Program-made: the position numbers and the translations under genes | In this document: positions 60,746-63,391 of the stretch, piece after piece | How the letters are laid out: each line of letters starts with the position of its first letter | Numbering within the stretch: position 1 is the stretch's first letter | Source of the DNA: Escherichia coli | GTDB lineage: Bacteria > Pseudomonadota > Gammaproteobacteria > Enterobacterales > Enterobacteriaceae | DNA length: 64,000 nt | Strand: one strand, 5' to 3' | Assembly (NCBI RefSeq): GCF_003334305.1 | Contig: NZ_QOWS01000001.1 | Notes under the pieces: model-generated | Told to the model about the DNA's origin: nothing | Database searches by the model: none | The model's input: the letters and a program-made list of their open reading frames with translations, nothing else

Positions 60746-61834
60746 TCACGGCAGGCGGTGGCGGGCTTGATAATAAGCCTGCCAGTGAGCTTCTTTATGT
60801 GTGGCGACTCGTTGTTCGAAGTAACGGCGCAGACGAGCGCGATCTTCTTCGTTATCTTTGACGATGGTTCCGGCAATGCAGTCCACCAGGTCGGCTGGCT
60901 CACCTGCGCGATTCGCTAAAAACCAGGCGCGGACGCCTACGGCGTGGGCCACGTTCACGGCTTCAGCGGTGGACATAATCGCTGTTAGTGTATCCATTGA
61001 CGTTTTCTTTTCGCCGTTGGCACGCAGATCGCGGAAGGTGCGGACCAGTAACTCCAGTACCGCGTCAGGCACTTTATGCGGAATACCGCTATGGGCCAGC
61101 AAACGCGCCGAAGCACTGGCGACAAGCTCCAGCTCCTGGGCGAAATCCATAATCGGAAAGACAGTTTCAAAATCGAAGCGACGCTTTAGCGCAGCACTCA
61201 TTTCATTGACGCCGCGATCTCGGGTATTGGCAGTGGCAATAATATTAAAGCCTTCTCGCGCATAGAGCTGACTGGCTTCACCAGTGAGTTCCGGCACCGT
61301 CATCACCCTGTCAGAAAGCATACCTAACAGACAGTCTTGCACTTCCAGCGGTGTACGCGTTATCTCTTCAAAACGGACGATTTTGCCGTCGCGCATTCCC
61401 TGGTAAAGCGGGGCAGGGACCAGCGCTTCCGTTGATGGACCATGATTGATAAGCAGGGCGTAGTTCCAGCCGTACTTGATTTGATCTTCGGTAGTAGATG
61501 CGCCGCCCTGGATGGTTAACCCGGCATCGCCGCTAATAGCGGTTGCCAGTAATTCAGACAGGAGAGATTTTGCGGTGCCAGGTTCCCCCACCAACATCAA
61601 ACCGCGCCCGGTGGCAAGAGTGACTAACATGCGTTCGACAGCGGAGGGACTAATCACCACTTTACGGCTAATATTTTGCGCGCTATCGCCAAGGATAAAA
61701 GCACGGGCCGCAGGCAAACTTAACTGCCAACCGGGCGGGCAAGGAGCGTTATCATTTTGTTTTAATTTTGCCAGTTCATCGGCGTATAACACAGCAGCAG
61801 GCGGACGCTGCAGATGATTATTCTGCGGTGACAT
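60746..61834 (-). CDS. yehL: MoxR-like AAA+ ATPase YehL, 362 aa
   Basis: ORF 60746..61915; start at 61834 (MSPQNNHLQRPPAA); Walker A GEPGTAKS. Confidence 0.9.
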   Translation of the reverse strand: MSPQNNHLQRPPAAVLYADELAKLKQNDNAPCPPGWQLSLPAARAFILGDSAQNISRKVVISPSAVERMLVTLATGRGLMLVGEPGTAKSLLSELLATAISGDAGLTIQGGASTTEDQIKYGWNYALLINHGPSTEALVPAPLYQGMRDGKIVRFEEITRTPLEVQDCLLGMLSDRVMTVPELTGEASQLYAREGFNIIATANTRDRGVNEMSAALKRRFDFETVFPIMDFAQELELVASASARLLAHSGIPHKVPDAVLELLVRTFRDLRANGEKKTSMDTLTAIMSTAEAVNVAHAVGVRAWFLANRAGEPADLVDCIAGTIVKDNEEDRARLRRYFEQRVATHKEAHWQAYYQARHRLP

Positions 61835-61944
61835 ATATTCATCCCTGAAATGTATTAATGAAATAAACGATATTTTACGCGCAATAAATGTTTGGCGCAT
61901 TAGTTGTTTGAGCAAAAAATATCTGGAAAGCAGATCGCAGTAAA

Positions 61945-62028
61945 TAAAAAAACCTGCTGGTGAGGCAGGTTCTTTTATTTACTATTTTCAGGCCTAACAC
62001 CACAGCCTGTGCAACATCGTGTTCCAAC
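61945..62028 (-). ncRNA. Candidate antisense sRNA antitoxin (OrzO/OrzP-type), about 84 nt
   Basis: Minus-strand TTGCAA-17 bp-TATAAT promoter (-10 at plus 62035-62040); predicted 5' end near 62028; strong terminator (AACCTGC-loop-GCAGGTT then TTTTT on minus); first ~20 nt complementary to the toxin leader at 62175-62194. Confidence 0.6.
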
Positions 62029-62034
62029 GAACGA

Positions 62035-62085
62035 ATTATAACCACGGCTGGACCCCGTTGCAATTAAGATAATGAGATTTATAAT
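62035..62085. promoter_or_regulatory. Back-to-back sigma70-like promoters sharing one palindromic -35 hexamer (toxin mRNA rightward, antisense sRNA leftward)
   Basis: Shared TTGCAA at 62058-62063; plus-strand TATAAT at 62080-62085 (16-bp spacer); minus-strand TATAAT at 62035-62040 (17-bp spacer). Confidence 0.55.
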
Positions 62086-62266
62086 CCAGACCGTTGGGAC
62101 GTTGCGCCGGATCGAACCTATTTCAAGTCCTGGCTACCGGACGGGGGGTGCTGCAGGTGGTGCCCTGATCCGGAGTGCAACATCGTGGTCCAACATACGT
62201 AAACCAGTATCGACAGGCAGTGTAAGGGTAAGGTGCTGGTGTTGCGCTCCTTAATAAGGAGAGCGG

Positions 62267-62356
62267 ATGGACTCGCTGACACAAAAGTTAACCGTGCTCA
62301 TTGCTGTACTGGAGCTATTAGTGGCTCTGTTACGGTTGATTGATTTGTTGAAGTAA
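62267..62356 (+). CDS. zorO/zorP: 29-aa hydrophobic peptide, type I toxin candidate (ZorO/ZorP-type)
   Basis: ATG 62267, AAGGAG 5 nt upstream; MDSLTQKLTVLIAVLELLVALLRLIDLLK, one predicted TM helix with charged ends; about 174-nt leader from the predicted start near 62093. Family name is from memory; which copy is zorO and which zorP is not resolved. Confidence 0.75.
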   Translation: MDSLTQKLTVLIAVLELLVALLRLIDLLK

Positions 62357-62377
62357 CGGGCAAATTGAAACGCATCT

Positions 62378-62402
62378 AAGGGGGAAAACCGCTTCCCCCT
62401 TT
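62378..62402 (+). terminator. Terminator hairpin of toxin mRNA copy 1
   Basis: AAGGGGGAA-aaccgc-TTCCCCCTT perfect 9-bp stem 22 nt after the stop; short U-tract. Confidence 0.5.
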
Positions 62403-62554
62403 AATAAAATGATTACTGTTTTTATTAATTCATCATATAACTCATTTTTATTTATAAATTCATCGATTTTATATTCAACGCACCATTTGACCGGGATGTG
62501 AATATTTATGTTGGGCTATTGGCAAAAAATATCTGGAAAGTAGATCGCAGAAAA

Positions 62555-62636
62555 TAAAAAAACCTGCTGGTGAGGCAGGTTCTTTTATTTACTACAGTGA
62601 CGCTAACTTGCTGATTGTGCAACATTTCGTACCAAC
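62555..62636 (-). ncRNA. Candidate antisense sRNA antitoxin, copy 2 (OrzO/OrzP-type), about 82 nt
   Basis: Minus-strand -10 TATAAT at plus 62643-62648 and shared -35 TTGCAA at 62666-62671; terminator 62561-62581 with U-tract; 5' region complementary to the copy-2 leader at 62783-62802. Confidence 0.6.
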
Positions 62637-62642
62637 GAATAA

Positions 62643-62693
62643 ATTATAACCATATCCACACTCCATTGCAATTCAGTGAGTGAGATTTATAAT
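62643..62693. promoter_or_regulatory. Back-to-back promoters of copy 2 sharing a palindromic -35
   Basis: TTGCAA at 62666-62671; plus-strand TATAAT 62688-62693; minus-strand TATAAT at plus 62643-62648. Confidence 0.5.
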
Positions 62694-62874
62694 CCTGCCC
62701 GTTGGGAGGTTGTGCCGGATCGGACCAATTTTAAGTCCTGGCTGCCGGACGGGTGGTGCCGCAGGCGGTGCCCTGATCCGGAGAGCAACGTTTCGTACCA
62801 ACATACGTAAACCAGTATCAACAGGCAGTGTAAGGGTAAGGTGCTGGTGTTGCGCTCCTTAATAAGGAGAGCGG

Positions 62875-62964
62875 ATGGACACGCTGACACAAAAGTTAAC
62901 CGTGCTCATTGCCGTACTGGAGTTATTAGTGGCTCTGTTACGGTTGATTGATTTGTTGAAGTAA
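62875..62964 (+). CDS. zorO/zorP: 29-aa hydrophobic peptide, type I toxin candidate copy 2 (ZorO/ZorP-type)
   Basis: ATG 62875 with AAGGAG upstream; MDTLTQKLTVLIAVLELLVALLRLIDLLK, differing from copy 1 only at residue 3 (S to T). Confidence 0.75.
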   Translation: MDTLTQKLTVLIAVLELLVALLRLIDLLK

Positions 62965-62985
62965 CGGGCAAATTGAAACGCATCT

Positions 62986-63010
62986 AAGGGGGAATACCGT
63001 TTCCCCCTTT
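62986..63010 (+). terminator. Terminator hairpin of toxin mRNA copy 2
   Basis: AAGGGGGAA-taccgt-TTCCCCCTT stem. Confidence 0.5.
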
Positions 63011-63018
63011 AAGAAAGC

Positions 63019-63073
63019 TATACTCGTCATACTTCAAGTTGCATGTGCTGCGACTTTAATTATCTAGAGTATA
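63019..63073. repeat. Truncated ERIC-like element abutting the yehK 3' end
   Basis: TATACTCGTCATACTTCAAGTTGCATGTGCTGCG ... AATTATCTAGAGTATA: ERIC terminal arms with the central part missing. Confidence 0.55.
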
Positions 63074-63391
63074 TTATTCTATTTCTTGGTTGAATATATT
63101 CTGTAGTTCACGATTAAAAATTGCTATTACAGTTTCAGGTGATTCACCTCGTAATTTCCGCTCATCAATACACTCATCTCTTATATAAATCAACGCATCA
63201 TTTATTAGCGGGTCAGCATCTTCTCGATCACGTTGATGAAATGTTGGATGTAGCCGGAATCGCTCCAGTCGATAGACGGAACCTGTAAATAATTCAGAGC
63301 ATTTATGGATCTCAAGTCTGAAGGAAAACGGATCTTCAGGTACAGGGACCTCATAATCGTAAATAGCAACTAGCTCTTTTTGCACGATCAT
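63074..63391 (-). CDS. yehK: Uncharacterised protein YehK, 105 aa
   Basis: 105-aa ORF (MIVQKELVAIYDYEVPVPEDPF...) between yehI and the repeat island. Confidence 0.85.
   Translation of the reverse strand: MIVQKELVAIYDYEVPVPEDPFSFRLEIHKCSELFTGSVYRLERFRLHPTFHQRDREDADPLINDALIYIRDECIDERKLRGESPETVIAIFNRELQNIFNQEIE

Follow-up and report, generated by a model that had tools for sequence, protein, structure and literature searches.

The switch that activates the chromosomal type I toxins of zor-orz has yet to be explained, and no transcription factor is known for the locus. The window analyzed here, the whole stretch of 64,000 nucleotides from Escherichia coli (NCBI RefSeq assembly GCF_003334305.1, contig NZ_QOWS01000001.1), carries this toxin-antitoxin pair in two tandem copies. 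A sequence-only reading of it had proposed that in each copy one palindromic TTGCAA hexamer serves as the -35 box of two divergent promoters, such that only one RNA polymerase could occupy it at a time and promoter competition would couple toxin and antitoxin transcription. The locus therefore raises the question of whether both promoters are real, whether they exclude each other, and how strongly such exclusion would act on expression.

We identify the locus as zor-orz, the type I toxin-antitoxin pair that E. coli carries between yehL and yehK. It has a zorP/orzP-like copy 1 and a zorO/orzO-like copy 2 and displays every feature of the family that can be checked by sequence. Its flanks are yehL and yehK/yehI, and the homologous region of K-12 is annotated as yehM, yehL, yehK and yehI. 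Tandem z3289/z3290 type I loci have been placed between yehI and yehL (Fozo 2010, PMC2887945); these were later renamed zorO-orzO and zorP-orzP, and in EDL933 the zor alleles are toxic on overproduction and are rescued by the sRNA. The zorO-orzO/zorP-orzP locus of E. coli O157:H7 EDL933 is the locus described here, alike in yehL-yehK position, 29-aa toxins, -35 and -10 elements and start sites, and also in having divergent sRNAs of ~82 nt that are complementary over 18-20 nt to a 174-nt 5' UTR. Several complete E. coli chromosomes matched the 1.2-kb zor-orz region at 100% identity, and 5293/5426 complete genomes contained it at least in part. The genes of the two copies are as follows.

61946-62028, minus strand: orz sRNA gene of copy 1, orzP-like, 83 nt, ending in an intrinsic terminator (Rfam, primer EF541, Term-seq)
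62556-62636, minus strand: orz sRNA gene of copy 2, orzO-like, 81 nt (Rfam, primer EF537)
62267-62356, plus strand: zor toxin ORF of copy 1, 29 aa, MDSLTQKLTVLIAVLELLVALLRLIDLLK (MDSLTQKL...), ZorP variant T3S (ORF reading)
62875-62964, plus strand: zor toxin ORF of copy 2, 29 aa, MDTLTQKL..., ZorO (ORF reading)

Both 29-aa toxin ORFs are intact, encode a hydrophobic Zor peptide and have an AAGGAG ribosome-binding site (RBS). ZorP has been defined as the T3S variant (PMC11264685), and the Orz 5' sequence, the UTR target and toxin residue 3 all assign copy 1 to the P type and copy 2 to the O type. The Rfam family RF02083 (OrzO-P; gathering score 60) matched the minus strand at 61946-62021 with 99.9 bits and at 62556-62629 with 88.8 bits, and both matches covered the full-length model. 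The experimentally defined 5' end of Orz lies 7 nt outside this model (window 62021-62028), which hence leaves out GUUGGAA, part of the toxin-pairing seed.

Between each orz gene and its zor partner lie the promoter elements.

62035-62040, minus strand: orz -10 TATAAT of copy 1, reading ATTATA on the plus strand, 6 nt before the Orz +1 (direct reading, consensus scan)
62058-62063, both strands: shared -35 palindrome TTGCAA of copy 1 (direct reading, script, promoter scan)
62080-62085, plus strand: zor -10 TATAAT of copy 1, 7 nt before the zor +1 at 62093 (direct reading, scan)
62643-62648, minus strand: orz -10 TATAAT of copy 2 (direct reading, scan, script)
62666-62671, both strands: shared -35 palindrome TTGCAA of copy 2 (direct reading, scan, script)
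62688-62693, plus strand: zor -10 TATAAT of copy 2 (direct reading, scan, script)

Direct reading and a script reproduced exactly, in both tandem copies, the hexamer coordinates and spacings from which the proposal had started. TTGCAA is separated from TATAAT by 17 bp on the minus-strand (orz) side and by 16 bp on the plus-strand (zor) side of each copy. A consensus promoter scan of 61800-63100 returned four sites, which are exactly the zor and orz promoters; each scored 10/12 with a perfect -10, and all four have the -35-like and -10-like hexamers 16-18 bp apart of a sigma-70 promoter. TTGCAA agrees with the -35 consensus at 4/6 positions and, as follows from its sequence, is the only hexamer in which both strands read TTG, the portion of the -35 that is conserved best. 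The composite 51-bp promoter pattern occurred twice in the 64-kb window and never in 100 dinucleotide-preserving shuffles, even with 2 mismatches allowed; the two promoter copies are paralogues and therefore count as one evolutionary event, not two.

Both promoters are real. Primer extension has mapped the starts of both toxin mRNAs and both sRNAs (Fozo 2010, PMC2887945), and the +1 positions given here are this published mapping transferred onto the window. The published cloning primers EF541 and EF537 match window 62035-62051 and 62643-62659, respectively, and the orzO/orzP +1 primers consist of native sequence ending in ...GGTTATAAT, an AatII site in place of the next six bases, and then GTTGG... 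This primer design places the Orz +1 at the G at 62636 and 62028, 6 nt past the -10. The zorO UTR is 174 nt long with its RBS at +164 to +169 (PMC5397157), so that zor transcription begins with the G of GTTGGGA (62701 and 62093), 7 nt past the -10; the same G is the first base of the zorO cloning primer. Both distances fall within the 5-9 nt expected of a start site. The mapped starts thus fit the hexamers and both directions are active, in agreement with the claim that the hexamers belong to the toxin (zor) and antitoxin (orz) promoters.

The transcripts themselves are documented. Orz sRNAs of ~85 nt accumulate to high levels during exponential growth and are less plentiful in stationary phase (Fozo 2010, PMC2887945), and OrzP has been detected in K-12 MG1655 by northern blot. 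The Orz 3' end at 61946 is equivalent to a K-12 Term-seq 3' end 111 nt upstream of yehL and coincides with the end of the predicted terminator. A second Term-seq 3' end, at MG1655 U00096.3 2204446 (+), 150 nt upstream of yehL and equivalent to about window 61985, lies inside Orz ~44 nt from its 5' end; it could mark an Orz species, cut by processing or terminated early, that consists of just the pairing region and the first hairpin. The Orz terminator hairpin AACCTGCTGGTGAGGCAGGTT (windows 61951-61981 and 62561-62591) lies between an A-run and a T-rich run, as a result of which the scan calls a plus-strand terminator too. The terminator may work bidirectionally, halting read-through from the zor copy upstream before it becomes antisense transcription across orz.

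The geometry of the control region bears directly on exclusion. The zor and orz start sites are 65 bp apart, each 32.5 bp from the center of the palindrome, and the two -10 boxes are separate, with 39 bp between them. The footprint of RNA polymerase extends from about -55 to +20, so that polymerases at zor and at orz would overlap by ~46 bp. From this geometry and the known footprint, two polymerases at once on the 65-bp region appear sterically implausible, and because sigma region 4 would also need the same -35 major groove on either side, we infer that binding is mutually exclusive. The proposal that only one polymerase at a time can use the common -35 is thus supported, by reasoning from the footprint.

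To follow the hexamers across alleles, we gathered sequences with a probe that does not depend on the promoter, namely 21 nt of the Orz terminator. Three other Escherichia species, 25 metagenome contigs and K-12 yielded 24 unique alleles after one unrelated hit had been discarded. Among the 23 unique alleles without rearrangement, which include E. whittamii and two other Escherichia species, 0/18 hexamer columns varied, compared with 23/33 spacer columns (Fisher p = 5.7e-7). Spacer lengths of 17 and 16 were retained in 23/24 alleles, and indels were found nearby in the Orz body and the zor discriminator. These observations agree with a published survey in which the -35 (TTGCAA) was conserved in 99.4% of 2,439 loci and in 99.7% of 656 orz-only loci, with the same values for Zor and Orz (PMC11264685); its authors regard promoter-element conservation above 99% as normal for E. 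coli genes (mSystems 2024, PMC11264685). Such a contrast between hexamers and spacers would be predicted if selection acted on two promoters both relying on TTGCAA, and it argues against one side ignoring the -35. Conservation of hexamers and spacing is nevertheless expected for two independent promoters anyway and says nothing on coupling. Conservation within Escherichia is also shallow. Among 100,044 species-representative genomes, the 21-nt terminator pattern hit only three Escherichia species besides E. coli.

The same alignment bears on whether a regulator could bind between the promoters. A conserved operator in the spacers was rejected, since nowhere in the region is variation greater than there, with 23/33 columns varying. 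In copy 2, TTGCAA sits within a 20-bp imperfect palindrome, CACTCCATTGCAATTCAGTG (window 62659-62678), symmetric at 16/20 positions. Such a palindrome could in principle be an operator for a dimer; it is missing from copy 1 and from several alleles and is therefore not a general feature.

The elements themselves are already known. Predicted -35 and -10 elements are boxed in Fig. 1A of Wen 2014 and marked in Fig. 1A of Wen 2017, and Table 3 of the mSystems 2024 study has a single '-35 (TTGCAA)' row for Zor and Orz and likewise a single '-10 (TATAAT)' row (PMC11264685). The hexamers are therefore not new, and the sharing of the -35 is implicit in the literature and undiscussed in the accessible papers. 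In the accessible parts of the mSystems 2024 paper we found no comment on palindromy, sharing or interference at the zor-orz -35 (PMC11264685), and the zor-orz, promoter and divergent passages of the 2014 and 2025 reviews do not mention a shared -35; in the passages available, the 2025 review states that zor-orz regulation remains to be deciphered. A search of the accessible literature for promoter mutagenesis of zor-orz found none.

The strong controls published for ZorO are post-transcriptional: the 5' 28 nt sequester the EAP/standby region, Orz pairs with the mRNA, and RNase III takes part. The corresponding leaders in the window are the following.

62093-62266, plus strand: zor 5' UTR of copy 1, 174 nt (published UTR length), with the Orz-pairing/EAP stretch at 62175-62194
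62701-62874, plus strand: zor 5' UTR of copy 2, 174 nt, with Orz pairing at 62785-62802 and the RBS AAGGAG at 62864-62869 (+164 to +169), a position matching PMC5397157

A divergent sRNA of this family is expected to pair through its 5' end with the toxin 5' UTR over at least 15 continuous nt, or over 17 nt with one mismatch (PMC11264685), and this was found in both copies. Pairing in copy 2 comprises 18 bp, one G.U among them, and in copy 1 it comprises 6+13 bp around one mismatch. Cognate Orz-zor duplexes were predicted at -39.0 kcal/mol (copy 1) and -32.9 kcal/mol (copy 2), compared with -29.5 and -26.4 kcal/mol for the crosses. The copy-1 duplex (62009-62028 with 62175-62194) contains a single internal A.G mismatch and still satisfies the rule of 17 nt with one mismatch. 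Perfect complementarity has been described for EDL933 sRNA-1 and z3289 (Fozo 2010, PMC2887945), and this mismatch is one of the small details in which the present strain differs from EDL933.

Both RNAs begin with GUUGG, as part of an inverted repeat GTTCCAACG / CGTTGGGAC (62021-62029/62092-62100; 62629-62636/62701-62708). The zor 5' end was predicted to fold onto +73 to +102, the EAP region that Orz also targets; by this prediction the zor 5' end would behave as a cis mimic of the antitoxin, consistent with Wen 2017. An origin of the two transcription units by inverted duplication was considered and rejected, as local alignment of Orz with the first 100 nt of the zor leader was no better than that of shuffled sequences (fractions of 0.80 and 0.86 at least as good). 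Likeness between Orz and the zor leader is confined to the promoter and the first 5-6 nt.

Natural rearrangements have struck the control region. Five complete E. coli genomes carry an IS in the copy-2 zor spacer, directly after TTGCA-ATTCAGTG and with the target duplication ATTCAGTG; in E. coli UTME-9 (NZ_CP157110.1; L032 1855-1880, L030 900-945) the site is equivalent to window 62666-62680. The transposase is annotated as 'integrase core domain-containing protein', the IS ends contain ATATTGCAAT, and the insertion parts the zor -10 from the shared -35 in copy 2. A divergent allele on a metagenome contig (L008, 355-400) retains at this site 20 bp that are identical to the right end of the IS, a scar that makes the site look like a repeated insertion target. 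In this variant orz keeps TTGCAA and the zor -10 is displaced by 20 bp. Being an IS remnant on a single contig, it was set aside as proof of a naturally uncoupled promoter.

In K-12, the orz-only locus (L004 1591-1777, equivalent to window 61940-62126) lacks the toxin but retains TTGCAA with its 17-bp and 16-bp spacers, the two TATAAT boxes and ~34 nt of zor leader. Transcription from the orphan zor promoter would be expected to run antisense in the direction of yehK. With the Term-seq 3' end at 2,204,485 as reference, we predict the Orz 5' end at ~2,204,403 (+) and the start of the zor remnant at ~2,204,338 (-) in MG1655 U00096.3. Since K-12 keeps the whole bidirectional promoter without the toxin, it offers a toxin-free test bed for competition.

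We favor the following reading, to which we give a probability of about 0.6: a single palindromic TTGCAA is the -35 of both zor and orz, polymerase can bind in only one orientation at a time, and the effect of this exclusion is at most modest. Each copy would be a 65-bp back-to-back sigma-70 control region, in which the orz side consists of TTGCAA, a 17-bp spacer, TATAAT and a +1 G, and the zor side of TTGCAA, a 16-bp spacer, TATAAT and a +1 G. On the orz side the spacer is of the optimal 17 bp, position -14 is a G, and the zor spacer and the zor -10 make up an A/T-rich upstream flank. On the zor side the spacer is 16 bp long, and both the upstream flank and the discriminator, which starts with CC (CCAGACC / CCTGCCC), are GC-rich. 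By rules of thumb for promoter sequence, which are the sole basis of this ranking, orz is probably the stronger partner and binds polymerase more often. A polymerase bound at orz would slightly damp zor initiation, which fits an excess of antitoxin in growing cells. As our best guess, this would have at most a modest effect on steady-state expression, and the main control of toxin output would still be post-transcriptional, through Orz pairing, RNase III and the self-inhibitory 5' UTR. Any mutation of the -35 would strike both promoters together, tying their strengths over evolution.

The expected size of the effect follows from work on other promoters. Overlapping promoters interfere only at high occupancy, on a scale set by the fraction of time for which they are occupied (Bendtsen et al. 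2011, PMC3167631), and the basal activity of five natural E. coli bidirectional promoters was too low for polymerase competition (Warman et al. 2026, PMC12825309); together these findings lead us to expect modest coupling at zor-orz. Improving one -35 of a bidirectional promoter produced strong competition and altered expression noise (Warman et al. 2026, PMC12825309). To judge by their hexamers, the zor and orz promoters, with their consensus -10 and the TTG of their -35, are above average but fall short of a full consensus. A consensus -10 with a good -35 may put them well above the weak natural promoters of Warman et al., in which case competition could be substantial, and this counts against a modest effect.

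Taken to its limit, that argument predicts that an orz-bound polymerase would substantially repress zor initiation and vice versa, that synthesis of the two RNAs would be anticorrelated per DNA copy, and that falling orz use, for instance in stationary phase, would derepress zor. By analogy with other overlapping promoters such a strong form is conceivable: overlap of the footprints is unavoidable with 65 bp between the starts and a common -35, both promoters score 10/12 with a perfect -10, and competition is seen elsewhere when promoter activity is high (PMC3167631, PMC12825309), reaching a 4-fold effect in a synthetic overlapping pair (PMC3167631). The drop of Orz in stationary phase (PMC2887945) would supply the release. 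Yet in that synthetic pair one altered base in the consensus -10 of the strong promoter, or two in its -35, were enough to abolish interference (PMC3167631), and the zor-orz -35 is itself only 4/6; no basal competition was seen in 5/5 natural bidirectional promoters (PMC12825309); the strong controls known for ZorO act after transcription; and a reciprocal rise of zor mRNA as Orz falls is not reported in the accessible text. We consider this form rather unlikely. The opposite view has a better claim, if still short of even odds: there would be no functional interaction, the promoters would lie side by side because the module is compact and be occupied much too rarely to interfere, and the palindrome would be simply the cheapest fit for two -35 boxes. 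Overlapping promoters are common in E. coli and need not interfere (PMC3167631), the low basal activity of the five natural bidirectional promoters speaks for it as well (PMC12825309), and in the IS-scar allele the zor gene is still intact with its -10 moved 20 bp away. That allele is one metagenome contig, however, and with consensus -10 boxes and abundant Orz, occupancy on the orz side may not be negligible.

Two further accounts are both very unlikely in our estimation. One is a positive coupling through DNA topology, by analogy with other divergent promoters, whereby negative supercoils left by a polymerase that has moved off one promoter would help to open its neighbor, so that zor and orz would stimulate one another instead of competing. 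The accessible portions of two papers document such coupling for closely spaced divergent bacterial promoters (PMC5175336, PMC4469952), and the GC-rich zor discriminator (CCAGACC / CCTGCCC) would be expected to make opening at zor sensitive to supercoiling; an Orz of only ~82 nt, however, implies a very short supercoiling domain, and the effect could coexist with steric exclusion. The other account is that TTGCAA serves only one promoter, the second relying mainly on its consensus -10 and tolerating loss of the hexamer. A consensus TATAAT can support some -35-independent activity, orz has a partial extended -10 (G at -14), and the 16-bp zor spacer is sub-optimal. Against this, the 17/16 spacing is fixed while 23/33 spacer positions differ and indels occur in neighboring segments, the full TGn extended -10 is absent on both sides, and no hexamer at 16-18 bp beats TTGCAA on either strand.

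We also entertained a speculative extension, drawn by analogy, in which the palindromic -35 would impose strict alternation on each DNA copy. As a protein-free toggle, it would let orz occupancy set the rate of zor initiation and its cell-to-cell noise, release the toxin promoter when orz use drops in stationary phase, and hold the ratio of toxin to antitoxin promoter strength constant against -35 mutations. We regard this as unlikely, at about one chance in five. The reading of a shared -35 with at most modest exclusion remains the one that we prefer.

Comparison with known systems places this arrangement more precisely. Lambda PR/PRM and crp with its divergent RNA are overlapping divergent promoters at which polymerase acts as the repressor, and from its sequence the zor-orz promoter may work in the same way. 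The aroP P1/P3 promoters and the synthetic P/PREV pair, like zor-orz, are back-to-back with overlapping footprints, and there occupancy of one promoter lowers initiation at the other, to a degree that depends on the time for which the promoter is occupied (PMC3167631). In these overlapping systems a transcription factor (TyrR, LacI, CRP, CI) usually tips the balance, whereas none is known or evident at zor-orz; no operator is evident because the spacers, which could hold one, are the most variable part. The bidirectional promoters described by Warman, Grainger and colleagues share with zor-orz a pseudo-symmetric element that can be read either way, such that one binding event excludes the other. 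They differ in having a shared symmetrical -10, starts 10-23 bp apart and separate flanking -35s, whereas zor-orz has a shared -35, separate -10s and starts 65 bp apart. We therefore do not assign zor-orz to that class, its -10s being 39 bp and its starts 65 bp apart.

The closest relatives in organization are tisB/istR-1 and shoB/ohsC, which like zor-orz combine a long structured toxin 5' UTR with a divergent antitoxin sRNA that pairs over ~20 nt. Their promoters differ: istR-1 has TTGCGC and is paired with a LexA-controlled tisB, and shoB has GTGACC as against TTGTAA for ohsC. As the toxin and antitoxin -35s of these siblings are not the same, the shared box is peculiar to zor-orz among the three loci. 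LexA and CpxR act on the sibling loci, whereas zor-orz has no known regulator.

What the shared -35 means for toxin control depends on whether it couples the two promoters. If it does not, this well-studied locus simply packs two ordinary promoters together in a neat, compact way. If it truly does, the arrangement would be a protein-free link between antitoxin and toxin synthesis and, by analogy with bidirectional promoters, could control expression noise, which would bear on heterogeneity of the persister type.
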